A stretch of DNA of 63,198 nt, the filler included, from Hausera hauseri (lineage: Eukaryota), in NCBI GenBank assembly GCA_046269625.1. It is 12 parts of 12 records of this genome, joined end to end, with 100 filler letters (N's around TTAATTAATTAA, not from the genome) between each part and the next. Parts side by side here need not be neighbours in the genome. Positions count along the whole stretch, not along the records: positions 21,498 to 28,476 come from JBJURY010046887.1; 11 more parts are not named here. One strand, written 5' to 3'. The notes under the pieces were generated by a model. That model saw nothing but the letters and a program-made list of their open reading frames with translations. It was not told the DNA's origin and did not search any database. The translations under genes were made by a program, and so were the position numbers. Positions 9,568 through 58,160 of this stretch are shown one piece after another (the first letter of the stretch is position 1; every line of letters starts with the position of its first letter).

Positions 9568-10050
9568 ATAGTTATTCACGTCTGTGATGAACCGAAAAAA
9601 TTGTAGAAAGATTTCGTTTGTACAAAGAAACTCATTGTGAAAGAAATACGTTGCTTCGCTGAGTATTTGTCAGCGGAAAATGAGTTATATGCAGATGTTG
9701 ACATCAGTCCATTGTGATATCAATATATTTGACTGGCTCATGACGTATGTTAAAAGAGAACAGTTGTCAAAATGCGACAAACTATCAGTTTCATCATTAA
9801 AGCCAAATAATGTTGTTTCGATATTAATATCTTCCGACTTTTTGAAAATGGACACTTTAGTTGATGATTGCATCGAATATATTCATTCGAATATAAATGA
9901 TCTGCTATCGACATCGTGCGACATAAATTGTGTAAATTCTTCGCTTATCGAAAAGAATGCAGAACGATTCACTGATTTAGAAATAAATGCCATTGTCTAG
10001 AAAAAAAATTAAAATAAGAAGTAAATTATTTTGAATCAAAATGGAGCAGC
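9568..10050 (+). pseudogene. SANBR: SANBR/KIAA1841-like BTB-domain (DUF3342) fragment, intronless, with stops and a frameshift
   Basis: IVIHVCDEPKKL*KDFVC..L.VKE...FAEYL / ISVHCDINIFDWLMTYVK / LKPNNVVSILISSDFLKMDTLVDDCIEYIH are hallmark motifs of this family. Confidence 0.85.
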
Positions 10051-10369: not shown

Positions 10370-10830
10370 AACAAACATCACAAAGTTCCATGACATCTTT
10401 CTACAAATTTGAAGAAAAACGCAGAAAAGTTATAAAACCAATCATGTAAATATGAGAATAACGCAGCAATTCCAGTTATAACGAGTTGTTCCGCATTTTA
10501 AACAGCAATCCGACAACAAGTGGTATAACGGCCATTAACGACACAACTGATGTTAGATAGTAATAAACATTAATCAATTTATGTTCCAAATAAAATTCCT
10601 CCAAAACAAAAAATCCACAGAGGTATCATCACTAAACCCAACAGTAAATTTGAAAACGTAACTGCAGCACCAATATGGCAATGTCTCTTCATCCGTACAC
10701 TGTACAAGTTACTCACATCGCCACCCGGACAACAACCAATCACAATAAGTGAAAAACAAAACTCCTTGTCCAACGATGATAACAGAGTCAGACCCGTAGG
10801 GAGGAATGGCATAATGAAGTACACTTTCAA
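10370..10830 (-). pseudogene. SLC10 / sodium-bile acid symporter family fragment
   Basis: FIMPFL...LIVIGCCPGGDVSNLYS......AAVTFSNLLLGLVMIPLWIF, then in a shifted frame SVVSLMAVIPLVVGLLFK. GCCPGG..SN is the SBF-family signature. Confidence 0.7.
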
Positions 10831-13800
10831 TGGAGTTAAATAATAAGCTGAACTGTAATCAGTCCATGAGCATGTAGATAATTGAGTATACAAGACAATA
10901 ATAAAGTGGGCAGATGTAAATTTAAATTGATTACTATTGATAATGACCTTTGACTTCATACTTCATTAACATTTTGAATTTTATACGTTTCATTTCATTA
11001 CAAATGTTGTATGATATTTTAATAACACTTGGTCAATTATATTTGGATACATACATGGAATCACATGCCATCATACAAATCAGAACAATATCCTGAAAAA
11101 CATTGACACCTTTTATTCGACTACAAATAGCATCGGATTCAGATCTTCGAGATTCGTTTTTAATTGCTGAAAAGCTTATTAAAGCTATTATAAAAATTTT
11201 GCCGTCTACAACGTTTCAAGAAAAAACCGAATTGACTACAATGTGGAAAAAAATTATTTGCTAAGCTCTGATAATTCAAATGCCAATGATTGATCACATT
11301 CAATTGGTTTTCACTCATTTTATTTCAGATATCGATAATCTTTTTAAGTGTGTGAAACAAAATGCTGTGTTCTGAGTACAAGAAAACAAACTTGACTGTT
11401 TTACACTTTAGATGACTAATATGAAACATGTAAATAAAAAAATTGAAAAAATCAGTTTCGGTTTCAAAAAAAGCCAATCCGACATTTTACAGATCACAAT
11501 CTTGCGAATATCTCGATCACAACCCTATTGATATTTCATCCAGGTCAGAGTTAGTGCAACTTACAGAATTTCTCGACGTTGAAATCTCGCGTGCAATTCA
11601 AATTTATTCTCCGAGGCATTATTAGCATTTTGCAGTCAGGTCTGTTGTTTGTTTATTAAAACGTTCAGTTCTCATTTACATTTTGTAAGATACTCTATTG
11701 AGTCATTTTTGAAGCATTTGATCGTTAATTCCACGTGAGCATTGTGAAGTGAAATATTTTCTTTAATTCTCAGTCGCTTTGTTTTTCTGGTGTTTGAGGA
11801 GTTTTGATGCAAAACAAGAATTTTCATCATTTGTATAGATTTTTGCTGCCAGAACTTTGATTCAAACTAATCCATTATAGAAATTTCGGGAACAGTTGCT
11901 AAATTTGCTCATACAGAACGATCAGTTTACCCTCATCAACATATCAGCTACATATTCTGGTATTTAACAACTTTTTCTGTTCGGCATACATACATTACGA
12001 ATATTACAGCACAGTGACTTTTGTACATCTCATTTGATTGATGTGATTATCCATTTCGTTTTTCTTGTAACATTTTGAAGCGTCTACGTGAATTGCGTTA
12101 ATTCTGAATTAATTCAGTTTCCTGTATCATTCTGAATTGGTAAAATTTTTTTTGAATTCGAATTTTTGTTTACCATATTGACTATTTAATCTTCAATTTT
12201 CGTTCACATAGTTTAGCTAAAGCTTTTGGGCGGTTTTCAAATAATGAAACGAAAGACAAAATCCAAAGAATCAATGTCTGAATATGGGATTTCAGAGTGC
12301 CCAGTCCGTATTGAAGGAATTGTTAAAGATTTTATTCCAACTCATGATAAATATTACTGGGACACGATTTCTAGTCTTGTTTTGTCGCGTTTCGAAATGT
12401 TTTTTGATTCCTTGCATGTTCAGAAACTTGAAAGATTTATTGCAAAGCTAGTGGATAATTTTGGGCTGACATGCCAGGGACTGATCTCACTCATTAAGAA
12501 AGAATTGGTTCCTGAACGAGCTAGGCCTTTGCGACGAGAAATTGATTTATATCTACTAAACGATTGCAGTGAAAAACCTGCTTATTGAGTATTTTCTTAC
12601 AATTGGAAATCATGGTAGCAGTGAGTTTACCATATTTAATAACGAAACATTGACAAAACCCAATATTGCACCTGCTCTTATCACAAATTTACCAATGACG
12701 TTTCATATTAATTCTTCCGATCTCACCAACGCATTTAAGATGATTTTTATCGAATGTATAGAAAATTGTGATTCAGCCATTTTGAAAAATGAGCAGGATA
12801 TACTTGAATACGTTATGGACTCAATATGAGCTAAGATCAGTATTCTGCCTATTCGTGTTCATGAGGAAAATGCTGCTACCGGAAAGCCAAAAGTAACTTG
12901 GGCACGCTGCGGACCCAGTACGCTTTATTCAACAGGGCGACACTGAGACATTTAACAATAATTAATAGGTGGTATATTACTATTACTGGGTGTTAATTCA
13001 ATTTGATAATTAGTTGTTATAACATTAATGAGTATTACCTTTATGGGCATGTCCGAATGATACGAATTTTCCTGACACTATTTATCGAATTCGGATTTAA
13101 CGTCGCACTGTTGATAATTACGTACTTGATCCGCGACGTGACCAGGTGCACGCATTGTTACTTTTGGCATTCTGGTAACGTTATTCGCCTCATAATCACG
13201 AATGAGCTGAATATTGATATTGGCCAATGTATTATCAATGGCATAATCAAGTATATCCTGCTTGTTTTCCAAAATCGTTGAATCGCTATTTTTTATCAAT
13301 TAAATAAGTCTTCTCAAACGTGTTTAGGAAATTCATGATATTTGAGGCCAACGTATTAAATAGATAATTCAATATGAATACATCAGAAACTAGGTCATTA
13401 TACCATCCAAAAAGAAATGCCATTGATATAAATCCATAAGATGATAGTAAAATATCATAACATTGCATCAGTTGACGAAATATAATTTTTTGTTGTTAAT
13501 AGTGTAATTTCTCTATGTAATAAAGATCCCTGAGAATTAACTGGCGTAGTAAAAATAGAGTAGAGTACTTGGACTCAAATATTCCTCATAAATATATTTT
13601 GAACTAAGAAATTCGTCAATATGGGGGAAAGATTTAAGTTAGACATAAAATGTGCTTTATTAAAACAATCAACGATTTTTCTCAAACGCATAAAACACGT
13701 CACAACAAAGGATAAAAAAGGGGCCAGGAAATCCGGCAACATTTCAGCATGTCAAAATACAAATATACCACACGTGCTAAATATTGTGCAGAACATTAAA

Positions 13801-16715: not shown

Positions 16716-18554
16716 CAAAATGACCACCACATAAGATTCCAAATGGGTTAAATTCAGAGGCGTACTGACACTTTCGCCAACTGGGGCGAGGTAGCCTTCC
16801 AAATTTACCCAATAACGTTTACATTTGTTAAAAAGCAAACGTTTACAGGAGTTTCAGCTCACTACGGCAAGGATTGTGTTCATTTGGCTGACTGATGTTT
16901 CTTATCAGTAAGATCAGAAAGAGACAAACATCTATGATTGGCCATATTTTAAGCTCTGGAGAACTTGCTCACCACGGGCAAAGTACCAGGAAGTAGAAGC
17001 AATGGACGACACAGAATGAAGTGTTTGGTTGGTTTGAAAGAATGGCTCGGAAGTAGGTCAAGAGCAGAGATGATTGGGACACCAGGAATCGCGAGAAATG
17101 GAGATCCATGACAGCCTACCTTCGAGGATGCTACCCGATGATGATGATGCTATGACCACGAGGTTTTCGTGCAACAAATAAACACGTAGGAAGCACACAA
17201 CTGGAAACACACTGCACTTACCATCTAAAGTAAATCCTTCAGCTGCTAATTCCCGTGTGCTTATCCCACAAATCATGCGATTGTTTCCGAAAGTGGAATG
17301 ACGCCTTTCTTCTGTCATGAAGATTCCTGTAGGTAAAGCGATCCTGTCATCCTCGCAAAATGCTTCTGACAAACTCCTGCCTGGCTTCAGTTTTACAACA
17401 GATTCCAGCTCAGATTTTGATTCTTGATGAGAATGCTCGGAGGTATGTGTGTTCTGGTCCCTGCTAGCAGGTGTACATGGTTCAAGTGACTGTGAACTAG
17501 AGGCTGCCATTCCTGTTTTAAACCTATTTCTATTTTAACAAGATCAGTTTTTCTTGGAATATGTTGCTAGTCAAATGTTACTCCCTGAAATGTTTATTAT
17601 TGTACAGCTCTTCATATTATTAGTAAGATGTCAGAGCTGGTGTGTTTTTTTTTAATTAGTTAGATTATGTTTGAGGAAATATCTACGAAATCCCCAAGAC
17701 AACAGTTTTAGAGCTATTGGATTTACACTATATGTCACACGCCTATTCTTGTGTTGGATTGAAACAGTCTGTACCTGCTATGCTCTCTTATTTATGCACT
17801 TAATCGTATTACATTTTTTAGCCCACTCAGTCCCAGTGTTAGTATTCAATGTTTCACGTGACCTGAATGTTTGCCTCTTGTGCCCTGCTCTCTCTTTTGA
17901 GTGTGGTTAAAAGGGTCCTGCAGTATAAATTCTGAAACTCAAGTGGCTGTCAGCATTTACAAACCGATCAGCTTTATGAAACTGGGTGTAACAAACTATC
18001 GACATACATTGTAAAAACTGGAAAATTTACAAATTTGTAAAAAGTGCTAATTAAAAAAAAATGTTCACATTGACTTTACGTATGACAGTCTTTCTACTAT
18101 CTTGAAAACTACTAGAGTGTTCGACGAGGTAGTTAGCAATCAATCCATATCACACGGTGCGCTCGGTTTGTTAATTGTTCAATGTCTCATTCTTACATTA
18201 TCTGCTGGAAGTCTCATTGACTTGGAAAGACTGATGGTTACCCGATGGTCAAAATGGAACCGCACTGGCTTGTGAATTCGGGAATGAACGTTTTAAATTG
18301 TTTATCTTACACGCTCTTAAATCTCTATCTCATCTGTACTCTGTGCTTGGTTACAACTTTTCTTGTCTTCTGTTATGTCTTTTCTACACCTTTTCTAAAC
18401 TTGTTTAAATATTATTGTAGATTTTTTAATCTTATAAAATTAATGATCAGCTGTATATAGTTGAAGAAATACAAACAACAACAACAAAATAAAAACTCCA
18501 GCAGAAAACGTAAATAACAAAATGAAACATATATTCGATAACTTTACTGAAATG

Positions 18555-19974
18555 CAGTGGCGAAGCATGGAATGTTTCAAAGTGTTAGCGTATTACATTA
18601 TTTGTCCAATGTTAACCCATAGATTAAGAACAGTTTTTACCAGAGGATCTTGAAGAAAAAATTCCAATGCTTTCACCAGGATTTGAAATTATTTAACTAT
18701 ATAACTTGAATTAAGAAATAGTTTACCCCTGTCCTCTTGTGGTTTAAACTTCTTAAAGGAAATGAGTGACTAAATAACTTCTATGACTCAGTCCCACCTT
18801 TCCCCATAATAATTTTTAAATACCTAAGCAACAGTAAGTACACATCCGTTCGTCTAAACTCCGACCTGTCAACGGTCGGCGAACTGCTAACAATGTATAC
18901 ACTTCGGCAGTTAATTTTAAGAATAAACATTTTACGGGAATGACTGATAATCACAACAATACCCTAGCGCCCTCCCCTTCAGTGTTAGCAGACAAGAAGT
19001 GTGATTTCGTAGGCTAGCAGTAGGGCTGAAAACAAAGCTTTTTTTTCCTTTTGAAATTGAATGCTGCTTGCCGTAAAATTCTCATCGTTTACAAGAGTTT
19101 TTAAATTTAATTTTTTACATTTAACATTATATATTACGCTCATCTTTTTTCCTTTTTGTAAGCATTGCTAACGCTGTGAACACGGGGGCCTCGCTACCGC
19201 TGAAATGTTCAGCATAAATCCACTTAAATAGACTTAAACGAAGAGAGGCATATACAAAGTGACAGAGAAAGACAGACTGACAGAGAGATGTTTGAATTGT
19301 TAAACGCGTCAACTTTATTTCTACACTTACTTGCGCCTCCATGTTCACAAATTTAGCAATGCTGACAAAAAGTAAAAATAGGAAAATAATATATAATGTC
19401 AAACATAAAAAACTAAATTAAAACAATCTTGTAAACGACGAGAATTTTACGGCCAGTAGCTCTCCACTGAAAAAGGAAAAAAAAAAGCATTGCTGTTAGC
19501 CCGTGTCAGCACTTCTCCCTCGCCCCTTTCTATCAACGTTAGCATGTTAACTTGGATGCGGTGGTGTGCTGTGGGTATTATTGTGATTATCGCTCATTCC
19601 CGTGACGTGTTTCCTTTATAAAAGTAGCTGCCCGCAGTTAACTCAATGTTAGCGAGCTTAGGAAATGCTTACAGGTCAAAGTTCAGTTCAATGCTTGCTG
19701 CGTTTAAAAATTATCACGAGGGAAAGGTGTGACTGCATTATAGGAGTTACTTGGTCCCTCATTTCTTTCAAGAAGTTTAGACCAGAAGAGGACATAGGTA
19801 AACTATTTCTTAATTTAAGTAATATAATAAAATATTTTCAAATCCTGGTGAAAGTACTGGAAATTTTTTTTCTTCTCGATACTCCAGTAAAATCTGTCCT
19901 TTGATCTATGAGTGTGACATTGGACAAACAATGTAATGTGCTAACACTTTGAAAAACTCCACGCTCCGCCACTG
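18555..19974. mobile_element. ~1.4-kb non-autonomous foldback DNA transposon with CAGTGGCG termini (hAT-like)
   Basis: The left arm from 18555 aligns to the reverse complement of the right arm ending at 19974 over most of the element. Examples are ctttcaccaggatttgaaa, aattaagaaatagtttacc and gccgtaaaattctc.tcgtttacaaga. The 8-nt flanks match only 5/8. Confidence 0.85.
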
Positions 19975-20364
19975 CTTACTTGCAATACATGTTGTCATCA
20001 AACAGTGCATGGATCTTGCATATGTGTGTACATTAATAACATGTGGCCAAACAAAAATCAGAAAACATCTGTTTCACATATCATATCACACACTACCATT
20101 TCTGTTAATTTCTTCTAATTTCATTCTAACCTCTAAATTACACTGGGCTAATGATTTATTTTTCAGAAGAGTACTTACAATCACATCCCATAACTGTTTA
20201 TATTCATTTGTCCTGGTTTAAGCATACGGTTCTTTAAATAAAACGGAATTGTTTTAAGGAAAGGAAAGAATCACTAATGACAGTTTTTTTTTAAATGTGT
20301 CGTAATACACAGTGCTTGGAGAGAATTCCGGGGTGCTATATTATCCCTCTGCCATCTGTGCTTA

Positions 20365-20580: not shown

Positions 20581-21497
20581 AAAGTACATAACGGACAAGA
20601 AGTCATTACTAGTAGGTGAATCGCCGTTGAATCTCGACAGCAACAAAAGAAACGTGTACGTATTGTTACAGAGAAACCCGTAGAAGATGTCATGGTCCCA
20701 GTGTTACGCACTGTACCTATTTTGGATAGGAATTAGACTTGCATGCTTTGGATTTACATCAAACCGCATTACCTGCCACTGAGTCGTTTTTCCTTTGATA
20801 CCGTGAAATACTTTTAACCAACGAGATGGCCAAAAGGTTCCATTTATGAGTGGAACATCGGTAGTCACGATACATTTTCGAACGAAGAGACATCCTGATT
20901 TCCAATAAAGATGGTTAGGCACAGCCCTTTATGTCGAAACGCCGATGTATGCGGAGACTTTTACTGCAATCACGCCGGAGACGGGATTCTCGTTTTTGTC
21001 GGTGGTAGATAGCAAAGGGGAAGAGGGATTGGAAGTTTCTTTAGCGGCTTGGGCCGAGTGGTCCTCCTATGGCTAAATACTAGATATAAAGCATTATTCC
21101 TGGAAGAAGTGATCACTGGTTGTTAGGTCGCTCAGGACGCCTTAGCCGGCGGAAACGTCGGATAATCCTTTAGAGGCCGATTCAAAGCGGCCGGACAGAG
21201 ACTGCTGCAAGGAGAAGTGAATCATGTGGCAGGCAACCAATCGGATAGCGGCATCCGACATAAAAGAAAAGTTGCCATGTCAAGCGAACCTTTCAGAAAA
21301 AGGATAAACAGACAGCCACCTCGAATATTTCTCACACCTAGTCGAAGTAAAACCGGGGGGGGGGGGGGGGGAATTCAAACATCTTTTCTCAAACACCNNN
21401 NNNNNNNNNNNNNNNNNNNNNNNNNNNNNNNNNNNNNNNNNTTAATTAATTAANNNNNNNNNNNNNNNNNNNNNNNNNNNNNNNNNNNNNNNNNNNN

Positions 21498-22344
21498 ATC
21501 TCGAACCATCAGAAGATATCTAGCACTGATGAATTTGAAGAGTCATATGGCTGTAAGAAAGCCATTTGTAAATGCATGGCAATTACTCAGGCATATTAAT
21601 TGTGCAATAGCTTATCTCCAAAAGCAAATGTGCTTTTGAAAAATACTTTGTTTATAGATGGGTGTTCCATTCCACTTTTCAGTTGTGGAAACGAGTATAC
21701 AGAGGCCCTAATGAGACTTTCTTACCACAGCATTTCCGATCCACGGTAAGTCATGACGGATCTGTTATGGTATTGGGATCGTTTTTCTACAAAGGTGTAG
21801 GACAAATGAGGATTCTTGAGCCCGGATGCAGAATGAATTCTGCTTGGTATTGTTCAATCCTACAAAAGGAGGTGTCTAACACCTTGGAGGAACATTCAGG
21901 TGGGTCTGCCAGGGCTAATTTTCAAGATGACGGGGCACTCGGCCATTGATCCCTGTTGGTGAGGAGAAAGTGCCGACAGCTTGGAATTTCGCAAATACTT
22001 TGGCCAGGGCAAAGCTCCGATTGTAATCCGATTGAGAATATGTGGTCATTCCTCAAAACCAAGGTGCAAGCGCATTGTTCACGAATTTTGAATGAACTGA
22101 ACTCAGCGATTCTATGTGTGCGGTCTCACAAGATTCCACTATGATATTGCTAGGGCCTTGTAAATTCCATGCCTTCTCGATTGAAACTCGTCGTCCAGCG
22201 ACAAGGCTTCCCAATAAAGTATTAGGCATTTGTACCATTCTTTATTCATTACTTAAAGATTTGCTTGTTTGGTGGCTTAAATTTTCTGAAATTACAGAAA
22301 ACTTGCATTTTGGCTTGATGTTCTTAATTTAATGTCCGGCACTG
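21498..22344 (+). mobile_element. Tc1-like transposon, 3' part with degenerate DDE transposase and right TIR
   Basis: SRTIRRYL..RKPF / TVSHDGSVMVLG.F..KGVG / FQDDGALGH / WPGQSSDCNPIENMWSFLK. The element ends ...AATGTCCGGCACTG followed by TA (22345-22346). Confidence 0.9.
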
Positions 22345-22346
22345 TA

Positions 22347-22420
22347 AATTTCGATGATTGATCCCGCATCAATTAGTGCACAGACTTCCCAGACGTCAAT
22401 ATAAATTTTAGTGAAGGCCT
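22347..22420 (-). pseudogene. Retropepsin-like aspartic protease N-terminus, truncated by the Tc1 insertion
   Basis: GRP[frameshift]FTKIYIDVWEVCALIDAGSIIEI. The DAG codons GAT GCG GGA (22362-22370) are one transition from DTG. Confidence 0.6.
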
Positions 22421-22789
22421 TCCTTCTATTATTGTACCTCGCATTTCATTCATTTTCCATCATACACCATAGTGTTTTGTTACTTCATAAGGGTCCTCAA
22501 AATTAGATGGTTTTCTACAGATTTCTGTTTGATACGATCGCTTATCACAGTCTTCGAATACTGATGCGGTAGAAAGTAAGATTGGCAACAGAGGTTTTAT
22601 GATGGAATATGCTTTATGTCTATTTATTCTGAAGACGGCGTTTCCTCCCTTAGGCTCGTCATTATCTGAAATATTTCTTCGCGTCATTGATTTCTCAACC
22701 TTGCGTTTCAGTCGAAATATGAGTCTTGCTCGAAGTTTATAATTATAGTAGCCGACATGGCGTTCAACGTCATTTTTCCATCGATTTTC

Positions 22790-24581
22790 TTCGTATGCTT
22801 TAAGTATTTTACCAAACGGTATGATAATTGCTGTTAAAATGTTACAGGAAAATTCTGTTAGCGTGAATATTTCGTACCCATTTATAACCGCTTTAATTAC
22901 CAGATGTAGCTTGTTCAAAAATTAAAAATCTTCCCCATATTTTGTAGAGTATTTCTGTGGTTACCCGTTGGTAATGGTTCTCACCAAGCAAGGATTCCTA
23001 TTTAGCCTAATATCGGGTATCGTCTACTACTGATGCCAAGACTCGGTTTAATTGGTGTGTTTGCTGTCGTGCAAAAGCAAGAAATTGTCGAAAAGCTTTG
23101 ACCTCTTTTGGTCGATAAATGTTTTTTGAAACGTATCTTGGAACTTGTCGTCAGTAATGCCTTTTGCTAAATTAGTTCCAGTTAGTTTTTTTAGGAATAA
23201 TAGTGACACTTCCATTGGGTAAGCTAACCCAATCCGTTTCGCTACGCCTAAACATCGGTTCACCCAAACTTGCTTTGTAATCCTTTAATATTGTAGGTTG
23301 TGTTGCGTTGTCTAGCAATACTATAGTGAGAGGCATGGCTAATCGTGGAGTGTTTTGGTGGATTACAGGTAACTCTTGTATACATCGCTTTTCTTCAACC
23401 TTAATTGGTACATCGCTTTTCTCGCATTCATAAGTTAGTAGAACTTCACCAGTAACTCGACCAAAAATTCCTTCTCTCATGGGAATGATCGGTGATGCTA
23501 ACTCCGAATTCTCATAAATAAGAGCTAATTTTGTTCTCATAATTTCCGTATCCAGCTTGCAGTCATTAGTTATCATTTTGTGGTATAGTTCGACTATTCC
23601 GACTTGTCCTTTATAATAAAAATAATCGTTTCGGTTTTTCAGATAGTCTTCGATTCGAATGTTTTGCGTTTCTAGGTTGTATGTTTTTGCGTTTATCTCC
23701 GTTTCTGCGACGAAAAACGCTTCGTAATTAGTGGTGAACATTACTACTTCACATCTTGAAATCATTTCCTTTCTGATGAATTTCAATCAATGTTGGTCAG
23801 GGACTAATATCGTAGGTGTATAATGCTCTGATACGTCTTCACGTGCTCTTGAACTGATGTCGGATTTATCTACGTATGGTTTCTCGGTAGTTTCCTTAAA
23901 TTTCAATTCTTTGATCTTAATAAATTTACAGGCTTTCCCGGTAGGCGGTTCCCATATGACGACAGAACTTCTGAAGGCAGAAGTTCCGTCTTGCATGTGA
24001 CATTTTTGATTCTCAGTATATAACTTAGTGATGCTATGGAACATTACTTTTTGGACTCGAATCTTGGATTCGTAAAAGTCTACTACTACTACATTTACTT
24101 CCAATCCTTTTCCGGTATCGTATTCCGTTCCAATACAGTGCCCGTTATTCATATTTAGCCTTCCGGCTACAATCTTATACGCTCTGATTATTTTTCCGGG
24201 CTGCATTTCTAATTCCATGCTATCGCATTTCAGTCTTCCGGTTTCTCGGGCTTGCTTACAATGTTGTCTTTCCACATATATTGGAATTGAAAGGGTTGTT
24301 GGTTTGATTAATGAGAAATGTCCGTGCATCAGTCCACAATGGAAGATGCTACAAGATCTTCTCAGCATACATCCCATGCCATCCAAAGATATCAACTCTT
24401 GTTGTTGGTATAGAAAATAGGTCTTCTCTTTTGTTTCCAGTTTATGTGGTCTGGCATCTTCACATGCTTCTAAGTCCATTAATGAATACTTTTGTCCAAG
24501 TTTGAATCTATCACAATCGTAAACGGTAACAGCACCCATTTGTTTTATTAACATCATTATGGTGAGCAAACTGATTAACCA
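22790..24581 (-). pseudogene. Chuvirus/Jingchuvirales-type fusion glycoprotein (env-like), ~600 aa, decayed
   Basis: Signal-like WLISLLTIMMLIKQMGA|VTVYDC..YSLMDLEAC, then C.L.RS.SIFHCG..H.S, C..A...G, GHCIG, VIW......C, C....TTNY, Y.....C.L, GEVLLTYEC...V......CIQELPV......P.T, PMF.....W and KIWGRF.IF...SG / INGYEIF....FS..ILTAI. This matches the cysteine and motif pattern of chuviral glycoproteins. Confidence 0.8.
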
Positions 24582-25299
24582 ATTAGATTAGTTCTTCAGG
24601 TTGTTGTTATTTGTTGTCGTCAAGTTGCGTATGACGTTTTCGAGTCTATTGTTATTTCTCTTGTCTTCTTCCTTGTCAAACAATTTTGGCCAATTTACTT
24701 CACACGGGAGTTTTCTAGACTTTTTACGTGCCAAACTCGTAGCTCGATTTAGTTCATTTTCTCGATTAGGATTTGTCTTAATTGCCAAATACAATAATAC
24801 TTTTCTCAGCTCTTCTATCGCATTATACACCATGATCTTCTAGACTATTGCGTCTTCAGTTAGGCTACTTTTTGACAGTCTGAAACGCGAACTTCTCACT
24901 GTTCTAGCTGAGTTAAATATTGCCTTTTCTTTCTCGTCTAATGTACCTCCGCGGAGACTCGAATAATTTACGATACGTATTAAATTTTTTCACTAACTCG
25001 CTTAATTCTTTATTATCTGTACTGAGAATAGGAATCGACACTTATCTTAATTCTCTAATTAGTTTTCCGTTATAGTCAATTTCTTCTCGGGTCTACGTGG
25101 GTCTGCCTACTGGGCGTTTCGGTTTCGGAGCATTCGTTGGCATTCAACTTAATGGTACTAAATTCTTGTCATATTGCTCTTTGTCTTCATCCGTTTGTAA
25201 ATACTCGAAATACATTGCAGGGTCTCGTACTCCCCAGATTTGTCCTACTCATTGTTCCGTTTTAGCCTTCCGTGTGGCTTCTTCTTTCGTCTGTTTATT

Positions 25300-25525
25300 G
25301 GCTATTATTGCTATTATCCGATTTGTTTTGTCGGGAATAATTCCGACATCTATTAACTGTTCTAAATCGTCGAGTATTCTTCCGCTAAAGTAAAATCTGT
25401 AATTTAGCTCATTTGTTCCGCCATTATTTAGTAACCATTCTCTTACATCCTTTACGTAGGACTGAGTAGTTAACTCATTCTTTTTTTTCCATCCAGTCGG
25501 ATGATATCATTACTTTTATCACTAC
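25300..25525 (-). other. Ubiquitin-like domain within the retroelement polyprotein (copy 1)
   Basis: VIKVMISSDWMEK[fs]NELTTQSYVKDVREWLLNNGGTNELNYRFYFSGRILDDLEQLIDVGIIPDKTNRIIAII, compared with ubiquitin [21 protein letters not shown]. Confidence 0.65.
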
Positions 25526-28126
25526 ATCAGGTTTAGTTCTCAGAATATTCGCATACTTCTTTATCAGGACTTTTGCAACCGTGTTGTAAATTGCATTCTC
25601 ACTAGATAATTTAGTTAAGGTCTGAGCTTGTTTTCAGTCATTCACATTAATTGATTCCATCATGTCCTTCTCGGCCAATGCTAAGTCTAGGATCATCTAT
25701 ACATTGAATTTCCTGTTCTGCGGATACCTTTATATTTCTTCTAGGTTTACTGGAGTTCCCGAATTTTCGGCCGTTATTTCTTCTAAATAAGCATCCCATT
25801 CTGGTTTATTCGCAATATCTGGAAGTCCATAGTCTACTAGAGCTGTATTCGTCCTTTGGACATTTTCTCGAATTTCTCTAAATTTTGGTTGTATTTCTTT
25901 CATCTGCGTAGTTCGGAATCCTATTCCGCTTCCACAGGCATATTGAATCATTTTCAATAATTCGCCTAACTCGTTAGCATTGATAAATCTCTTTTGGTGA
26001 TAGTCGGTTAATTCCATAATTACATCTCTTTGCCATCTCTGCACAAATTATTGTTTATTTTTAATTTCTGATTCCGTAAAAGTGTATTTGTTCCGGTAGC
26101 TTTCGAATTCTTTTACTAGTTCATCTAGCCTTGTTGCTCTTTGTTTCGTTTTAATGCATGATTCTTCAACTTGTTGTAGTTTGGGAATTAATTGCCTCAT
26201 TCTTTTATCTAAGATTTCGATGTCTTGGGCAGAGATCTTATCGATTGGTTTTTCCGTTAAGTATTGGATTCCTTCTAGTCCAGCAACCTTCAACTTTGAG
26301 TTTACATCGTAAATCATGTTCCGCTTTTCCATGAAGTTCGGCTCTTCGATCAATTTATAAATCTCCAATATCGACGTTTCTTGTTTTCTTTTCATAAATT
26401 TTAGCCGTCTTAACGCTTCGAATTGGGTGCGGATATCTATTTCTATTTTCATTGTGCCTAGATCATGTGCATTTTCTTCTAGCTGATTCTTTACCATTGG
26501 TTCGCTTTGCGGAAATTCTTTTTTGCGGTCTTCTACTAACTTGCTTAGTCTGTTTACTAACTCGGACCATTCTGGCAATTGATTTCCGATAACTGGTTTC
26601 GCCATTATAGCCTTATCTAACATCTTATACGCGTTTTTTAACTCATCGTCGGGCCCTCTTAGGAAATTCATAATCCGACCGACATAACTAAACTCATCCT
26701 TATATTCGTCCAGTTCTACAATACAAGCTTTTATTACGTATTGAGTTTCCTCATGGTTTGGGAACATAATTCGGTTTCTTAAACTATTAATCTGTGATCT
26801 TTATCATTCTGCATTTTGATGCGGCTCTCTAAGTCCGCACATCAACTGTTTTCGACAAAGGCAAATTTTATCATCTCCATTAAGGGAGGAATATCTATCA
26901 GGTCTACACCCAATATCTCAAAATCGATACAACTTCGATCGCTAACCGTTTTTCCCTAAGCCGATTAATCATTGCACAGCGAATTTCATCCATCATACGT
27001 TCTAAATTACGGACTACTCTCTTCAGTTTTGGGTTTGTTTCCAAGGTAGACAGTAGTGTTTGAGCCTTAGCAACTTTCACATCAATACTATCTTCATTTT
27101 TACTCCATCCTTCTGAAAATTCTACACCACTTTTAATCCACTAGTCTAATTCGTGGTTCCATTTTGTCAACGTATCTTGTGGTACCTCTTTCGGTTGTCT
27201 TACTTCAATTGCTTCATCGAGTTTCCCTTCACTCCACAATCTTAAACTCTTGTATAATTTCTCCGCAAATTGTTGTTCCTTGCCAGATATATCTGTTTGT
27301 TTACTAATCTGCTTGAGCCTTTTCAAATTGTGTCTGAGTATTTCTGGATTGTGACATTTACTTCTCATCCTCTTTAATTCTTTAGCATTTTTTCATGAAC
27401 GTCGAACTTTCCATTTTCTCGCATCATGGTCATTATTATTGCCCGTTTCTTCTTCACTAGCGGGAAGCGGACAAATTTCGTTTATTTCCTCATTAACATT
27501 TTCCATCTCTGGAGTTTCTAACACTTCTGGAATCCCTATAGGCGCAATAGAAATCCCTGAGGGCGAGTCATCTCTTAGGATAGCAGTATGGAAATCTTTT
27601 TTTCTTCTGTATCCCTTTTAATGGGAGATTGTGAACGAGTCTTAGATTTTCACTTAGGCGATGGGCTTCTACCTCTATTCTTCGTTATATTGAGAACTAA
27701 GGGCCCAATAAATTTACTTTTGACTTCGTCTATTTTTTCATCTGGATTATGCGTCGCGGCTTCTATTTCCGTATTTAAATTTACATTTTTAGATGTCGAT
27801 GGTTTCTCCGATTGTGATATTCCTTGCGAAATAGACTTCTTACGCTCCATATTAGTATTATTTGGCGCCAATGCCCATTCTTCTTCGGTCTGTGGTTCTT
27901 TTAATCTATGATAAATTTCCATTAGTCGTAATTTCTTTTCATATTATTTTCTAGCGTTCATGACTTGAGAATTAGTAGTTTCCCTTAGATTTCTTACAGA
28001 TATGTGTAAATTTTGCATTTCGATAATCAGGCTTATATCTCCTCGTTTGCCATAGATGGCTTCCAAGTTATTCTTGATCATACTTGTTTTGTTTGGTTCA
28101 GTAAATGTGACACTTCTAGGATTTGG

Positions 28127-28168
28127 GCATGACCTAGCAATATGACCTTCTTTTTCACATGTAAAGCA
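28127..28168 (-). other. Gag CCHC zinc knuckle (copy 1)
   Basis: CFTCEKEGHIARSC, preceded by an R/N/D-rich nucleocapsid-like region. Confidence 0.95.
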
Positions 28169-28576
28169 AATTAAATTTTCATTTCGACTAATCCTTTTCT
28201 GACATCTTTATTCACGGGTGATTTTGACCTATTTGTGTTCTTATTCTGACTCTGGGATATTTGTCTGCTATCTCCATCATATCGATTTTCGTTACTTCGA
28301 TTCTCAGTGTGTTTAGCATTAGGTCGGTAAACACTTTGGTTTTTATCTCAACTGTAACTCGGTTTATTATACGAGTTGTATATGTTTCAATTACTAAAAT
28401 TTCTATCATTTCTTTGATTTCTATTTTGGGCATTTCTATTATCTTTTCTATTTCGATTATTGCGGTCATTATTCCTNNNNNNNNNNNNNNNNNNNNNNNN
28501 NNNNNNNNNNNNNNNNNNNNTTAATTAATTAANNNNNNNNNNNNNNNNNNNNNNNNNNNNNNNNNNNNNNNNNNNN

Positions 28577-28817: not shown

Positions 28818-29394
28818 AAATTTGGCGCCGCCTTCAATTTAATTTAATTTATGTATTAAAACAAAGGCGATTTAAAACTAATCAATAAGCGAGGCAGTAT
28901 ATGGTGATATGGCAATGTTTTTCATAATTTCCAAAATAACTTCAACGATTGGTAAGTTTTTATTTGTGCTGCTCAAATAGTTGGTTGATTTTAGATGTGC
29001 AAACTTTACAGCAAATGTTTGGCTAAATCCACGAGCCGGAAAATTTCCACAGTGTTATGAAGTACTTTGGCCATATGTACAACAGGGTTCAGTATTATAT
29101 ATGCCCTACATGTGTGGCAGTGTGCCAAACCGATTATGAAGACTTTTACAATGTCCATAAACAGTACTTGATTTCCTTCACTAAGTCGAAAAAACAAATA
29201 TTCAGTACCAATATGCCAATAACGAATTTCGTGCCATAGGAAAATCAAAGATACAGTTCATATGTGTATTGCACATGTGCAATACACAACCCTCAGAATT
29301 GCCACAATGCTATGAGGAGCTATGATGAATACAAATTCAATAGAGCCCTTATTATATTTGCCCAAGATGTGAGGCTGTATATGATGGAGAATAC

Positions 29395-32300
29395 ATGCAG
29401 TTTTACAAAGATCATATTGCCCATTTGGCAGAATTCAATTCAAAGCCAAAGAAGGCAATATTTAATAAGCAGCATCTTGCTGTGACAGCACAGCTAGTTG
29501 TACAGCCTGCTTTAGCAGCAAGGCCTGATGCAAGACCAAAACGCCTATCAGAAGTAGCAGCAGATGCTCAATCAAAAAGTCAAAGACAGCGGCCAGTTGA
29601 TGCAGTTGCACTGAAGAGCAAAGTTCGGCGATACTTTGTATCAGCAATGGGGCAGACATCGCTTTATGAATTCCTGCAATATTCAAAGGAGGTGGCAGCA
29701 GGAATTCTCCAGGACAACTTGTTGGAGCTGAAAGCCCTTAAGGTGAACTTTAAATTGGAAGCCACCTTCACCAATGTTAAAGGAGAGCTGTCTAATAAAA
29801 CATTCAAGACAAAGAACAGGACACTATTGAAATCCTTTAATATTAAGGATTTAATTACTGAGGACTATGCAAGGCTCATTCGCAAAGCCGAAGAAGGCCA
29901 GGACAAGAAGAGTGATGGGACTTTAGCAATAATAAATGGGTTACTTGTGCATGTGCAAAAGTATTCTCCCATGAGAGACAGGGTACTACATACCGCTTCC
30001 TGAATGGATAGTTAAGAAAAAGGCATGTATCCGTGTCCATAATAATGACAACATGTGTTTCATGTATGCCATTTTATCAAAACTAGTCCAGGATTAAAAT
30101 AATGCTTCGCGAGTTTGGATATATGACAAAGTGCAGCACACATACGACTTCAGCTGTATTTCATTCCTGCCGAATCTAGATGAAGTCGTGAAATTTGAAA
30201 GCGTGAACATCTCAATCAATATCTTACGATTGGAGGAGGAAATATTTTGTCCATTACATGTGTGCAAGGAGGAATTGGAGGATCATAGGAATCTACTCCT
30301 GCTAGATGATGGAGAAACGAGGCATTTCATCTGTATCAAGAATTTTGAGCTCCTCGTAGGATCCCAAATATTCAAGCATAAATCAAGGCTGGAAATATGC
30401 AAGAGATGCTTTTCCCATTTTAATGGGGACACAGCCGCAGAAAGGCTGGTGGAGCACAAGACTTACTCTAATACAAACCACTGCATCCGAGCAAAATTCC
30501 CCAAAAAGGATTACCTGGAATTCAAGGAGTTCGAGAAGATGCAGAAGGTGCCGATTGTCGTCTATTGTGATTTTGAGACCATTCTCAGCCAAGTTCACAG
30601 CTGCATCCCTAATCCTCAACATAGCAGCACAACAGCATACCAATATCATGAACTCTCATCATATTGTATGTATGCCAAAGGACTGGACAATGAACCATTT
30701 CTATTCAGAGGGTCCGACGCAGCAGCACATTTTATGAAGAGATTAGACGACATGGCTCATAGGCTTGAAAACATTCTTCAGCAGCATAAGGATACAATGA
30801 GCATGTCGAAGAAACAAGATGAATGGTGTAAGGCAACAAGTTAATTGTGCGACAAGTCCTTCACGAAGGATAATTATAAAGTCAGGGATCATTGCATTTT
30901 ACAGGCAAATATCGAGGTGCAGCATGCAACAACTGCAATCTACGTTGCAAAACATACACATATGTGCCTATAGTGTTCCACAATTTCAGCGGTTATGATT
31001 CCCACTTCATTGTTCGGGAACTGGGTAATATTGAGGGGAACATTAATGTCATTGCAAACAGTGAAGAAAATATATCACCTTCACTAAGCATGTGGGCCGC
31101 ATTAAACTTTGATTCATAGACAGCTTCCGCTTCATGAGCTCGTCACTGGATAGTTTAATGAAGAACCTCCCTGCAGAAGAACTCAAGGAGACGAAGTGGT
31201 TCTTCCCCACTGCATCTGACCTCGTCAAGAAAGGCGTGTTCCCCTATGACTATGTAACGTCATGGAAAGAACTGGATGAAGATGCATTACCGGCCGAGGA
31301 GGATTTCTATAGTCAGTTGTCATCCAGTCCTATTAGCGATGCTGACTATAAGCATGACCAAAGAGTATGGCAAACCTTCCAGCGCAGGACAAGAGGAGAA
31401 TACAGTGATATCTATCTCTTCACAGATGTGCTGCTACTTACAGATGTCTTCTAAAGCTTCCGGGATGTGACCCTTAAGACCCACAAGTTAGATCCAGCCC
31501 ATTTCTTTACAACTCCAGGAATGAGCTGGGCGGCGATACTGCACTATACGGGCATAAGGCTCCAGATATTGAAGGATTACAATATGGTCCTCATGGTTGA
31601 GAGAGGCATCAGGGGCGGAATCAGCCAGGCCATTCACAGCTACAGTGAGGCCAATAACAAATACATGGCAGATTATGATCCATCAAAGGAATCCTCATAT
31701 ATGTCATATCTGGATGCCAACAACTTGTATGGATGCGCAATGAGCAACCCATTGCCCTATGATAACTTCAAATGGGTCAAGAATCATGAAGACATCCCAA
31801 TATTGAACCTAGATTCCATTGGAGATACGGGCTATATACTGGAGGTGGACGTGGAATACCCACATAGCATCCACGCAAGGCATGAGCAGCTGCCATTTCT
31901 GCCGGAAAGCAGGCCTCTGCCCCATGGAAAGCATAAGAAGCTGCTCTATTACCTCGAAAACAGGGAGAGGTATGTAGTCCACTACATAAATCTCCAACAG
32001 GCCATCCAAAATGGACTCCGAGTCATCAGGATTCATCGGGCCCTGCGGTTCAGCCAGTCCACATGGCTGAATCCATACACAGACCTCAATACCCAGTTGA
32101 GGGCCAATGCCAAGAACGAGTTTGAAAAGGACCAATTCAAGCTGTATAATAACTCAGTATTTGAAAAACTATGCAGAACATCCGGAACCAGATAAACATC
32201 CAGCTGGTATGTGACTGGAAGAGAACAAAGAAACTCATCGCTAAGCCCAATTGCCACAGCTGCACAATCTACACAGAGAACTTGGTGAACATCCATATGA

Positions 32301-32885
32301 ACATCCATCACTTAAGTTCAACAAGCCTATATATGTGGGCATATCCAAGAGCTTGATGTATGACTTTCATTACAACATCATGGTCCCCACATTTAAGGAG
32401 CTCCAGCTAATGTACATGGACACGGATAATTTCATATACCAGATCCATACAGATGATGTCTTTGAAAAGTTTCAAAAATTGGCGCAGCATATTGATACCA
32501 CGGACTATCCCAAGGATCATCCAAATTACTCAATCGTCAACAAGAAGGTTCTCGGAAAGTTTAAAGACAAGGTGAATGGGAAGATCATCACCCGTTTCGT
32601 TGCTTTGAATTCAAAAATGTACGCCATCGATTTAAGTGGTCAGGTAAAGAAGCGGGTTAAGGGAGTTCAAAGGGCCACATTAACTTAATACATAGGTTTG
32701 TGGATTTTGAGAGATTGTTGCGGGAACAAACTCACATCGTCAGCGAGATGAAGAGGATCCAGTTCCGAGAACATCAGATTGCCACGATTGCACTTCGGAA
32801 GAAAAGCCCCGATTGGTTCGATGACAAAAGGCACATTCTTGAAGACAAAATCCACATACTACCTCACGGACATATGGCATTGTAA
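29395..32885 (+). pseudogene. Polinton/Maverick (adintovirus-like) protein-primed family B DNA polymerase, decayed
   Basis: Motifs include NNDNMCFMYAILS, exonuclease VYCDFET and FHNFSGYDSHF, endonuclease-VII-like RDH.HFTGKYRGAACNNCNL, KGVFPYDY, GIRGGIS, YLDANNLYGCAM, KLYNNSVF.K, YMDTD, KKVLGKFKD, KGV and DDKR..L....TLPHGH-like. There are multiple stops and frameshifts, and AATAAA at 32915. Confidence 0.92.
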
Positions 32886-33607
32886 ATATTGTTATTCATT
32901 GTTATTCTTTGTTTAATAAATGTTGTATAGAAATACTGTATTTTCTTCTTGATCAAGTAATGTGGGATATAGGATAAGGCCAAGTAAAACTAAGTAACTA
33001 CTATATAGGATAAGACCAACNNNNNNNNNNNNNNNNNNNNNNNNNNNNNNNNNNNNNNNNNNNNTTAATTAATTAANNNNNNNNNNNNNNNNNNNNNNNN
33101 NNNNNNNNNNNNNNNNNNNNTTCATGTTCGTCTATGTACTAACTATCTTCCGAAGGAATCTCTTTAAGACGGTCGTTTCAGCCTTGCTACCTACAAACAG
33201 AGGTTCGTAATTTATACTAGTTCCGATTAATTCGGTTTCATTCTTGTCGTATTTGTCTTTCACATTAACCAGGTCCATTGATCGCAATTCTTGCATTAAT
33301 TGTGGTGTTGTTAAGAACCATAACTTTTGCAGAATTATTAATTTTTGTTCCCGTTTGTGAGGAGGAATTGAAACGGATATTGACGTTTAAATTCAATTCA
33401 AAGTTAATTCAATAAATAGCCAATAGAAAGTCAGGAAATTCAGAAAAGAAAGAAAATAAGTCTCATTTCCCCAGTGAAGGAGATAAATGTTATATAAAAC
33501 TTATAATAAATCTCTTATGGATAATTCTATTTAACAATCTTCAAGTGACGTTGAGGTCGGGATGGCAGAGACTCGATCTACTTACATAACTTTTGCGTCC
33601 CCATAAA

Positions 33608-33833
33608 TATTAGGGTTCCCAGACTTCAAGAAGGAATTTATTCTGGATACCGATGCTAGCTTCAATACGATTGGAGTAGTTTTATCACAGAAAGGCATTA
33701 CCGGGTATGAAAGAGTGATTGCATACCGGTCACACGGAATAAATAATTACGAAAAGGGCTATTGCATTACACAGAACAAGTTTCTGGATATGTAGTACTT
33801 CTGTCAACATTTTAATCATTACTTCTCTGAGTA
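33608..33833 (+). mobile_element. Ty3/Gypsy RNase H fragment
   Basis: ILGFPDFKKEFILDTDASFNTIGVVLSQ....ERVIAY.S......EKGYCIT. Confidence 0.9.
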
Positions 33834-36242
33834 GATAGAATGGAGCGCATGAGCACAGTACTCCTCCTGGAAGAAAAAAAAATGCACCATAGCGCAGACG
33901 TTGACCAATCAGAGCACAATATGTGTGTACGGGGAAGGAACTAACCAATGAGAAGACAATATGTGTGTAGCAGAGAAGACATTGTGGCTCGGATTGGGTT
34001 TCACTATTCCCAACCCTTTTGTTTTAATTTCGCGCCAAAAATTTCTTTTCTTTAAATTTTGGTATATTGGTAGCCGGGTATAAATATAGGTGTGAAAATA
34101 CCATGACATTATTTTAATAAATAGTACGACAAATGATATGTTTTTATAATTTTGTTCTCCTAAATTATCTATTTACTTAGAATTACAAAATAGATAGATA
34201 GAGGCTCACATATGAAATATTCAGTGGGAAAATTGATTGTGTCCAATTTCTAAATAAACTGGAGAATGAATACTTTTTATCAACGGAAGACTATGTAGAA
34301 CTTGTAAAGATCTCATTCAAGTCAATGATAGAACTATAGATTTCATGGAAAATAAATGACGAGAAATGTAGTCGTATCCATGTTTATATTGCCATAGAAG
34401 ATCATAATGATGTCCATTGTAAAAGTGGAGATGCAGTGGCGTGTGATAGGCTACCTCCCGCATTTTGTAATGGATTTTTGCATACATCAAAATGTCACCA
34501 TTTAACAACGGTACTACAGCTACATAGCCGTTCTGTTGTGTTCCTTGTTGTTGTACGATCTCTGCGGAACTATTGAATATCTCTATGGATACCACGTGGC
34601 GATTTTTATGTCCGGATTCATTCCGAATATTTTCTGTACGAACTTAAATATATTTCATTGCTTTTAATGATCCATAATTTGGCATAGACAGTTTTGAAGA
34701 CTGTGTGGAGCAGCACAGGTGGTATAATATTTTGTCATATACCGAAATAAGATCGGCTGTCCCAATACATAAATATGTGAGAGGTAGCCAGTCAACATTG
34801 CCAAATATTCGTCGTAATATCTGTCAGAATCGTGACTTTCTTTCACAGAAAGACTGCCCTACAGTACGGGATTATGAACAATGCAGCATTCTATTTTGTT
34901 CAAAACTAATAGCCAGAAGTGCCGAATATTAAAATTGATTTGAAAATGAAATATATCTTAAAATGAAATTTAACTTAAAATCAACTTTAAACTAAATTTA
35001 AACTCAATTTAAATTAAACAAAAACTTGACAAAATTGACGAAAACTTTGTTAAGGTTCACATTTTTAAACGTTGTTGGTAGAACCTTGGACAAGTGCAAA
35101 AACCGATCATATTCAAAAGCTCCAATCGCCGTATTTTGACTTCATTGGCAAAAGGTTTTTTCATATCATTATTTCATACGTATTTGACTATTTCTTATAA
35201 AGATCCCCGTGACAGTTAGAAATGTTCCCTTATTGGTAAAATTTATAATTCAACAAACGACTTATATACGTATAATATGGAATGCGTACTTTTCAAATAG
35301 ACACTGAATTTTGGTGGTTAAATGAAGTATAAATATAAAGTAGCCTATAATCGTGACCGCTACTTACAGATGTGGTAATTCTATGGATCAGACTCCGTTA
35401 GAATTTGAACCGAGAATAATAATTTGCGGTTATTACCAATTTTGAACTTTGTAAAGGAAAAAAAACAGCTATTAATTTTACGATTTTCGAATGTCAAGAA
35501 AATTTAGCTCAGTGTTATTAACTCATTAACTCAATTTGTATGCAAAATGATTTACTTGGCAACTCTGCCAAACAAGTGATTTAAATTTGCATAAAACGTA
35601 ACTTTTTATGACTTTCCTTTATTTTTATGTAACTACCTATATTATTGGTGCCAGTCTTCATGTTATTGATTGGAAACTACATATAGCAACATAATATTGT
35701 ATATCATGAAACATTTAATGGTGCATGGAAAATTGTTACTTTTTGTATCTAAGAGTTATTATGTAAAAAGCTTATGATTAGCCGGGTATAAATACCCGGC
35801 CATTCTTGGTAGAGACACCATAAAAACTGTTAGCTTGAACTGCTATATCTCTTCTTGAGTATTGTACAATCAGTGAGTTTTTGTCCATTTTATGATCATC
35901 ATTGTTAATTTATTTCTTTTGAAAATATTATTTTATTTTTGCCATACTTTGTTCTTATTCTAAGTAAATAAATAAGTAAATAACTTCTAAGTAATTTTGG
36001 AAAGCTAGCCGTCCAGGTCGAACCCTACCTGACGGCAACCTGTTTAATTTTAAGTAAAGAGAGCTAAATTATAACCTTAGTAAGTAAGAGGAACCACAGG
36101 CCCACAGCCTACTTGCCCCCGACACACAGACATAGGATAGCTTAGGTAAGGTCCTAGAGTCTGTTCTTGTTCAACCCATATTTCACACGTATAAGAAAGT
36201 TAACAGTCTCTCCCAGGTGAAATATTGTGCAGATTGAACAAC

Positions 36243-36260: not shown

Positions 36261-36400
36261 ACGACTACTCTTAGATAGTAAACGAAGAAACCGTTAAGAT
36301 AACGACCAGAAGAGGGACACCATACAAGTTAGGTTCGGACGACAATTTACCATTCGGGTTAGAATTTTTAAACAACTTAAGCGAAGAGGAAGAGAACGGA

Positions 36401-37105
36401 ATGGCAAGAAACGAACACAACGTAGAGCAGGTGATACAGTCAAAAGCTGACTTCACCTTGCCCATGAAGAAGTTTTCAGGAAAAGAAGACGTACAGGATT
36501 TTATCATGGAATACGAGGTATATTCAAAAAGTTTTGGATGGAATGACCAACAACGAATGGAGAGGTTACCTCTCCATTTAAAGGGAACTGCATTAACGAT
36601 TTACTTCCAGATGCCAGAAGAGGATAAAAAGGATTGGAAGACTGTCAAAGAAAAGTTACCTCAAAAATTTCTGGTAGATCCTTCTGGTAAAGGAAGGATA
36701 GAAGAATTTATACGAAGGAGGCAACGAAAAGATGAGACAGTACAGGATTTTGTCTGTGCATTGGAAAAGTTAGCCGCAAGGGCTTATCCGGATGCAGTAA
36801 TAAGAAGTAACGCGTTGTTGGCCCAATTCCAATATGGATTAGAAGCAAGGTTAAGAAGTATTATACTACAAGCTGATCCCTCCACGTTTCAAGAGGCAAT
36901 CAGGAAAGCCCGAAAAGCTGAGCGGGACGCGGAATTATATAAATGGACCAAGTCGAAAGAAAATACAAATAATTATAAACGAAAAAACAATAATAGTACT
37001 CAAAGATATCAGAGATACGATAGAAACCGAAGCCCTTCGCAAACGTCAGCTACAGAGGCTGAGTCAGATGTGGAGAAGAAGGTAAGGTTTAAGTTAAAGA
37101 ACCAT
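36401..37105 (+). CDS. Ty3/Gypsy gag (capsid) ORF, open to the contig end
   Basis: FSGKEDVQDF..YE......GW......LPLHLKGTA...F / RRQRKDETVQDF...L..LA..AYP / QF..GL...P.TF.EA...A..E. Confidence 0.9.
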
Positions 37106-58100: not shown

Positions 58101-58160
58101 ATCTTACGCCAAGATAAACCTTACAACGTTCATATTTCAAATCTGAAGCTCGCTGTCTTC
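55120..58160 (+). mobile_element. Ty3/Gypsy pol (PR-RT-RH-IN), decayed
   Basis: Protease FLIDSGA; RT SPWASPLHVVTKKDG.YRPCGDYRQLN and YIDDIL; RNase H TTDAS and YSTFDRELLA; integrase C..CQ..K, VHLDLVGPLP, TDQG and TTPYHPQANG...RFHR..K. Confidence 0.95.

Follow-up and report, generated by a model that had tools for sequence, protein, structure and literature searches.

The minus strand of positions 22347-28476 in a stretch of 63,198 nucleotides of Hausera hauseri DNA (assembly GCA_046269625.1; hereafter, the window) carries what is very probably a decayed copy of a Burro-like Ty3/Gypsy element with the order GAG-ENV-POL, whose functional ancestor would have made one polyprotein, likely continuing into reverse transcriptase (RT) as well as RNase H and integrase. 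The domain order was observed in two diverged copies, selection has acted on the whole stretch, and relatives with the envelope gene (env) before pol in a single open reading frame (ORF) were found. The copy at 22347-28476 (copy 1) is dead: stops and frame changes interrupt it, its membrane anchor is damaged, and a Tc1-type element has inserted into the protease. The initial annotation of this sequence had regarded the placement of env between Gag and protease as a candidate new architecture. This claim has to be dropped, because the arrangement is already catalogued in the parts of the literature considered here (PMC6431247; PMC13524379), having been in print since 2019 for flatworm elements.

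It must be noted that the window is not continuous DNA, but consists of individual contigs, each about 4-7 kb long, joined by 11 N-linkers (e.g. 21398-21497 and 28477-28576), each made of N runs around a 12-base stop in all frames; therefore, neighbours across linkers carry no meaning. Copy 1 fills most of the contig 21498-28476, with about 6.1 kb preserved. Copy 2 (about 4.1 kb preserved, also on the minus strand) lies in the last contig, at 59121-63198, and is diverged from copy 1, the two showing 67-71% nucleotide identity across four blocks; the family is multi-copy within the window itself. It appears to be large and diverse, since 16,018 contigs of one sequencing run (X1, possibly the source) map onto the element and 12,641 of them are less than 95% alike, although such contig counts give no copy number. 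The X1 contigs are dense from the Gag zinc knuckle to the Env tail and sparse below about 22630, where sparse cover is no evidence of absence. X1 was the sole run listed, and no RNA run was listed as carrying the element, which is uninformative on expression. Scans of metagenome contigs gave 62 pattern matches for env and 43 for the relative P0025, and a scan of viral contigs gave 14; none of these was confirmed.

Domain order in the two copies

Copy 1 begins with an Arg/Asn-rich low-complexity Gag segment (28180-28476), similar to a segment of the relative P0016; the capsid is missing because the contig begins at 28476. Downstream of this segment lies the Gag CCHC zinc knuckle, CX2CX4HX4C, at 28127-28168 (Pfam zf-CCHC, E 2.1e-5), which had been correctly recognized in the initial annotation. 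The corresponding knuckle of copy 2 is located at 62583-62624 (zf-CCHC, E 2.7e-7), and is accompanied by the C-terminal helices of the capsid at 63029-63157 (capsid profile, E 0.066).

The knuckle of copy 1 is followed by a charged, largely helical and coiled-coil-like insert (25480-28126), interrupted by stops and frame changes, which measures about 880 codons up to the ubiquitin-like domain, close to the 850 originally estimated. Between the two copies, amino-acid identity in the insert is 47-64%, and identity at third codon positions 42-49%. The insert gave no Pfam match at E 0.1, with only weak matches of coiled-coil type at looser thresholds; one weak coiled-coil match, to BLOC1_2 (E 9e-4), was obtained in the helical region of copy 2. 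There was likewise no match in the Atlas, none in the PDB under E 0.09 and none under E 0.02 among 159 fetched proteins of relatives. Overall, the distance from knuckle to env is about 1215 codons in copy 1 and 1133 in copy 2. In the six fetched relatives with both landmarks it is 234-626 codons, the value for copy 1 being two to five times as large.

A further Ty3-type capsid was found elsewhere in the window, at 36275-37105 on the plus strand (Pfam E 4.5e-8); it shares 44% identity with P0025 Gag and has the A-rich composition of the element. Interrupted by a linker, it likely represents the 5' end of a family that is related and bears env. BLASTP of the translated 36275-37102 against the first frame of copy 2 gave no alignment.

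Between insert and envelope, copy 1 contains the C-terminal part of a ubiquitin-like domain at 25300-25476. Although its Pfam score is below the cut-off (PF00240, E 0.051), the domain matches a profile of the same domain in the relatives (E 1.7e-4), and HHalign against five of them gave a probability of 78% (E 1.8e-5), compared with less than 0.3% for four controls. An AT-hook-like motif, RPVGRP, follows at 25096-25125 with a stop codon directly after it; in copy 2 the AT-hook is intact (59791-59826; PF02178, E 0.19, below cut-off), and GRP(K/R) motifs precede env in P0010, P0011, P0015 and P0025. The next segment (24590-25090) is helical and occupies the position of the Bcl-2-like domain of Burro and of four relatives, and lines up there in a MAFFT alignment. 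The AlphaFold model of this segment in copy 2 was too low in confidence for use (predicted local distance difference test, 41). Finally, a hydrophobic, internal signal-like segment (24522-24578; hydropathy 1.82) abuts the N-terminal YDC motif of Env, and is placed alike in 12 of the 18 relatives tried, these 12 being the ones in which the motif search located the start of env. The ubiquitin-like domain, AT-hook and signal-like segment had all been proposed at these places in the initial annotation and were recovered there. Copy 2 also shows helical region, ubiquitin-like domain, signal segment and start of env, in the same order as copy 1.

The envelope ectodomain of copy 1 (22905-24533) matches the class III fusion glycoproteins of the herpesvirus glycoprotein B (gB) and Monjiviricetes type (PF24664, Monjiviricetes_fusion, E 2.4e-39). 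It runs for about 545 amino acids, with five in-frame stops, to a break at about 22905; the Cys-rich glycoprotein of some 600 amino acids noted at first is real. Twelve of its 14 cysteines are kept in all the polyprotein relatives and in all nine chuvirus-side sequences checked. While single-sequence searches of the PDB gave no significant match, a profile of 98 family members matched structures of herpesvirus gB (best E 3.4e-4), and the matches under E 0.02 were to herpes gB only (33 of the 35 matches). Because of these profile matches, the Env of the element is classified, at the level of sequence comparison, as a class III, gB-type fusogen.

Phylogenetic trees of Env were built with 75 and 31 sequences, chosen among the matches by rank and length. 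In both, the element groups with the Envs of polyproteins, with a support of 0.91 in one tree and an ultrafast bootstrap (UFBoot) value of 96; the glycoprotein of Tacheng tick virus 4, the one chuvirus named in the tree, and the sequences with env after pol branch apart. The description of this Env as chuvirus-type thus stands at the level of the Pfam family (PF24664), and fails in the tree, where it groups with the polyprotein Envs (UFBoot 96), away from Tacheng tick virus 4. One further member of the Env clade, P0115, was the sole stored protein bearing one of six motifs taken from published Schmidtea elements (that of the Smed_errantivirus_1 env). It consists of an Env fragment which by eye is near-identical to Smed_errantivirus_1, fused to an unrelated N-terminal sequence, and is probably a chimeric gene model.

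Past the ectodomain, a damaged membrane anchor and cytoplasmic tail (22430-22921) are still recognizable, with a frame change at about 22905 and indels by which the X1 copies differ from copy 1. A tail had been predicted at this point, and is present; its length had been underestimated at about 120 amino acids, as about 184 codons separate the pre-membrane motif and the catalytic Asp of the protease. The protease itself is reduced to an N-terminal retropepsin remnant of about 24 codons (22347-22418), with the motif ALIDAGS at 22358-22379, as had been pointed out in the initial annotation. In the relatives, the motif-to-Asp distance is 128-388 codons, and 128-211 in nine out of ten; because the spacing in copy 1 falls within the range of these nine, it lends support to an otherwise weak remnant.

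Five codons past the protease motif, the sequence is cut by the TA-CAGTG end (22345-22346) of a Tc1/mariner-type DNA transposon, located on the plus strand at 21498-22346 and inserted at TA. The remnant of its transposase, on the plus strand, matches DDE_3 at E 6e-6, short of the curated cut-off. Pol is absent from copy 1 because this transposon interrupts the protease and extends to the end of the contig. As already reported for the region between knuckle and glycoprotein, no match to RT, RNase H or integrase was found there or anywhere in the contig 21498-28476, and a pol profile built from four relatives gave no match in the same contig.

A contig with RT, RNase H and integrase (55037-58400) was a candidate for the missing pol. 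It was discarded, because its protease motif is a different one and A makes up 28% of its coding strand, against 38-40% in the element. It is a decayed, ordinary Gypsy pol of another family, with protease, RT, RNase H and integrase on the plus strand.

Reading frame, selection and relatives

The initial annotation spoke of one polyprotein. For the ancestor a single frame is most likely, while copy 1 itself is broken by about 22 in-frame stops (the script tally was 23, one of which lies outside the protease frame) and at least seven frame changes, and for this reason the single polyprotein is an inference. It draws on the comparison of the two copies. Over 787 aligned codons, nonsynonymous divergence (dN) is 0.27 and synonymous divergence (dS) is saturated, and second codon positions are 77-85% alike, compared with 42-49% for third positions, which indicates that two lineages both preserved the protein encoded from knuckle to env. 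The aligned columns hold 16 stops private to copy 1 and 10 private to copy 2, and none common to both. With one exception, each frame change from knuckle to env lies at a place where the other copy is uninterrupted. Small indels distinguish the X1 contigs from copy 1 near 26800-26950 and at about 22900. Taken with the purifying selection, the absence of shared stops points to one ancestral frame; the unshared stops and non-coincident frame changes suggest, as far as can be read from the alignment, that it was continuous from knuckle to env. Continuity from env to protease in one frame is supported by the relatives only, and not by the second copy in the window.

A phmmer search with the env region as query, covering 1.84 billion representatives, returned 389 matches, 150 of which were listed, and 19 long ones among these were scanned for domains. 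A retropepsin follows env in one ORF in ten of the 19, RT and RNase H follow it in five, and four of these extend to integrase. In P0014 and P0026 the whole series of knuckle, env, protease, RT, RNase H and integrase is contained in one ORF, the arrangement that the initial annotation suggested looking for, and two further cluster members (4844 and 3003 amino acids) read from env through protease, RT and RNase H to integrase. A knuckle precedes env in six relatives. The Ty3/Gypsy-type order gag-X-env-protease(-pol) deduced in the initial annotation is supported by relatives in which the remainder of pol follows env and protease in a single ORF. In P0025 the order is capsid, knuckle, ubiquitin-like domain, AT-hook, Bcl-2-like domain and env (ubiquitin and Bcl-2 matches below the Pfam cut-offs), and the 340 residues from 501 to 840 can be aligned with copy 2 (E 1e-7).

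The relatives had some peculiarities of their own. P0014 (HBK71150.1), which has Gag, Env and Pol in a single polyprotein, is recorded under a Flavobacteriaceae metagenome-assembled genome, most likely because a contig of animal origin was binned with bacterial sequence. The ORFs of P0163, P0010, P0015 and P0166 each contain from two to five or more retropepsin-like domains, and several of them end, after integrase, in a second membrane protein with signal and anchor that belongs to no Pfam family. Neither the multiple retropepsins nor the second membrane protein is described in the sections of PMC6431247 and PMC13524379 covered here.

Alternative explanations and a possible mode of expression

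Several observations weigh against a Burro-like GAG-ENV-POL polyprotein. Identity of Env to its best relatives is only 21-29%, and the trees do not resolve its position inside the polyprotein clade. The protease remnant has DAG instead of D(T/S)G and an E value of 0.89 against a profile of the relatives' proteases (yet the top score among the six frames of the window), X1 contigs at 80% likeness cover it thinly, and the junction of env to protease is present in copy 1 alone, across two frame changes. Neither copy shows RT, RNase H, integrase or a long terminal repeat (LTR), both contigs ending before. The region 26656-27128 is missing from copy 2, so that the frame change located there is uncontrolled by comparison. 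As to the accessory domains, profile search and HHalign (0.3%) gave no better result for Bcl-2 homology of the segment preceding env than for controls, and MATH, BIR and ankyrin domains were not detected by Pfam in the scanned segments; these could lie beyond the preserved part, and the ankyrin of P0163 indeed stands after env.

The uncontrolled frame changes leave some room for an element with the same gene order in which Gag-X, Env and Pol each had an ORF of their own or were joined by frameshift or read-through. Those of copy 1 at about 26900, 22905 and 22420 are not controlled by copy 2, and the published search for such elements allowed gaps of up to 2000 nucleotides between ENV and POL and, in the part considered, speaks of ORFs arranged GAG-ENV-POL (PMC13524379). 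We consider such an arrangement improbable, given that env has no start of its own, that the signal segment is in frame with conserved upstream sequence in both copies, that env and protease share one ORF in ten of the 19 scanned relatives, and that the X1 contigs differ from copy 1 by small indels near 26800-26950 and at about 22900. Equally, the lack of any visible pol, together with the thinning of X1 cover below about 22630, where many copies may diverge before the protease, could be read as a lineage that was non-autonomous: selection would have maintained its gag, insert and env, pol would have been lost before these copies were inserted, and the enzymes would have come from a partner element. 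This is highly improbable, because the protease remnant is found at the expected distance and is cut by the transposon end, contig depth gives no copy number, and fast divergence of the tail would produce the same picture.

The initial annotation had itself considered that the copies might be deletion derivatives. Either pol was deleted from an element of the usual gag-pol-env order, or a Gypsy copy happened to receive a chuvirus glycoprotein. Such an origin would agree with the assignment of Env to a Pfam family that holds chuvirus glycoproteins, and with the distant matches P0040 and P0044, which have pol sequence before env. Against this, the junction is in frame in two lineages with saturated dS, Env groups with polyproteins having env before pol, P0040 and P0044 fall in another clade, and a protease remnant follows env. 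Moreover, RT precedes env in none of the 14 closest relatives among the 19 scanned; since close relatives carry env and then pol domains in one ORF (five of the 19), the element does not appear to be a deletion product. This explanation is largely refuted, and we regard it as extremely improbable.

If the ancestor did make one Gag-Env-Pol polyprotein, what is known of membrane-protein biology suggests how it might have been processed. Translation would start in the cytosol with Gag and the accessory domains, until the internal hydrophobic segment acted as a signal sequence, moving the Env ectodomain into the lumen of the endoplasmic reticulum (ER). Signal peptidase could then cut after the small residues of this segment, leaving Gag-X tied to the membrane. 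The anchor that follows the ectodomain would bring the chain back into the cytosol, and Pol would thus hang on the Env tail until freed by the protease of the element. Gag, Env and Pol would in this way be made 1:1:1 with neither splicing nor frameshift required, and budding particles could carry the class III fusogen and pass between cells. ER threading, entry of Pol into particles and infectivity are not treated in the covered sections of PMC6431247 and PMC13524379. A decayed and truncated copy makes these questions no more testable than do the intact published elements.

Known elements, the helical insert and other contents of the window

The closest published description is that of Burro (GYPSM1), giant planarian Gypsy-like LTR retrotransposons of more than 30 kb with an ORF of about 4900 amino acids and a dUTPase between protease and RT (Arkhipova and Yushenova, 2019; PMC6431247, in part). 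There, env lies in frame between gag and pol, is preceded by Ubi/SUMO-like and BCL2-like domains and matches mononegavirus glycoproteins, and degenerate copies interrupted by stops and frameshifts have been reported from Dugesia japonica. The comparison was made with this published description and not by sequence alignment. The element shares with Burro the Gag CCHC knuckle, a Smc-like or helical region, the ubiquitin-like domain and an env, probably in frame, that stands between gag and protease and resembles glycoproteins of mononegavirus type. It differs in having one knuckle per copy in the window instead of two or three, in giving no match to MATH, BIR or ankyrin, in a Bcl-2-like domain that is not demonstrable, and in its AT-hook, which is not mentioned in the section on Burro. 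Because of the single knuckle, the lack of detected MATH, BIR and ankyrin domains and the unproven Bcl-2 domain, the element was not filed as Burro itself.

GAG-ENV-POL elements with a gB-type Env have also been described in Nematoda, Bryozoa and Platyhelminthes (Chary and Hayashi, eLife; PMC13524379, in part), and nematode metaviruses with env before pol are cited there (Sacco et al., 2022, J Gen Virol). The element resembles these errantiviruses in its gene order, in a class III Env of herpes simplex virus gB type, in the signal segment and in the conserved cysteines. The order was found as knuckle, env and protease remnant in copy 1, and as knuckle and env in copy 2; the features of the group that could be tested are present, the anchor being damaged in copy 1. 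Judged by eye and not computed, Env is nearer to the six Schmidtea 'C1a' sequences than to the ten bryozoan ones shown. The published elements are intact and flanked by LTRs, whereas the element in the window is decayed and truncated. A literature search for gag-env-pol retrotransposons returned Chary and Hayashi only, and one for a flatworm retrotransposon polyprotein with Bcl-2 and envelope found nothing.

Two other groups were considered and rejected. Anakin BEL/Pao elements (Dezordi et al., 2020; PMC7642597) and Chuviridae have glycoproteins of the same Pfam family (PF24664) with the same 12 cysteines, but these form a separate Env clade at about 19-20% identity, and the relatives of the element have Gypsy-type Pol; membership of the env-bearing BEL/Pao elements (Anakin) was rejected, as env of the element precedes the protease and sits in a separate clade. 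Troyka, in the part of its description considered (PMC12440569), has a CX2CX8-10HX4C finger and no env, in contrast to the standard CX2CX4HX4C knuckle and the env found here.

As an architecture, then, the element adds little to what was published in 2019. What it adds is a divergent, high-copy lineage, whose Env shares less than 30% identity with any sequence found and whose long conserved insert is the only part that could reward more work. A bolder idea, to which we give limited credence, is that the element belongs to a distinct lineage with in-frame gag-env-pol, possibly from an uncatalogued host group, whose own module of about 880 helical codons, under purifying selection, might be a coiled-coil tether between capsid and membrane, acting through the Gag-attached signal anchor and replacing a matrix protein.

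With regard to the host, a HYDIN-like coding piece was found at 2302-2877 on the plus strand (PDB match, E 1e-29), in which a short insertion may be a tiny intron, and which suggests a host with motile cilia. Such a piece argues against a nematode.

Several other sequences of the window deserve mention. An uninterrupted ORF of 894 codons with no apparent intron (38554-41238, minus strand) encodes a DEAH-box helicase, which we take to be Prp2/DHX16-like; it is either an intronless host gene or a retrocopy. A decayed protein-primed DNA polymerase B at 29344-32688 (plus strand; Pfam E 4e-11) is probably part of a Polinton/Maverick-type element, and a long imperfect inverted repeat at 18554-19975, with arms of about 640 nucleotides that are 73% alike, represents a foldback or MITE-like (miniature inverted-repeat transposable element) sequence. 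Smaller fragments include the RNase H of a retroelement (33560-33850, plus strand), a Tc5/pogo DNA-binding domain (50165-50488, minus strand), a SANBR-type BTB piece (9641-9997, plus strand) and a piece of a bile-acid symporter (10582-10962, minus strand).

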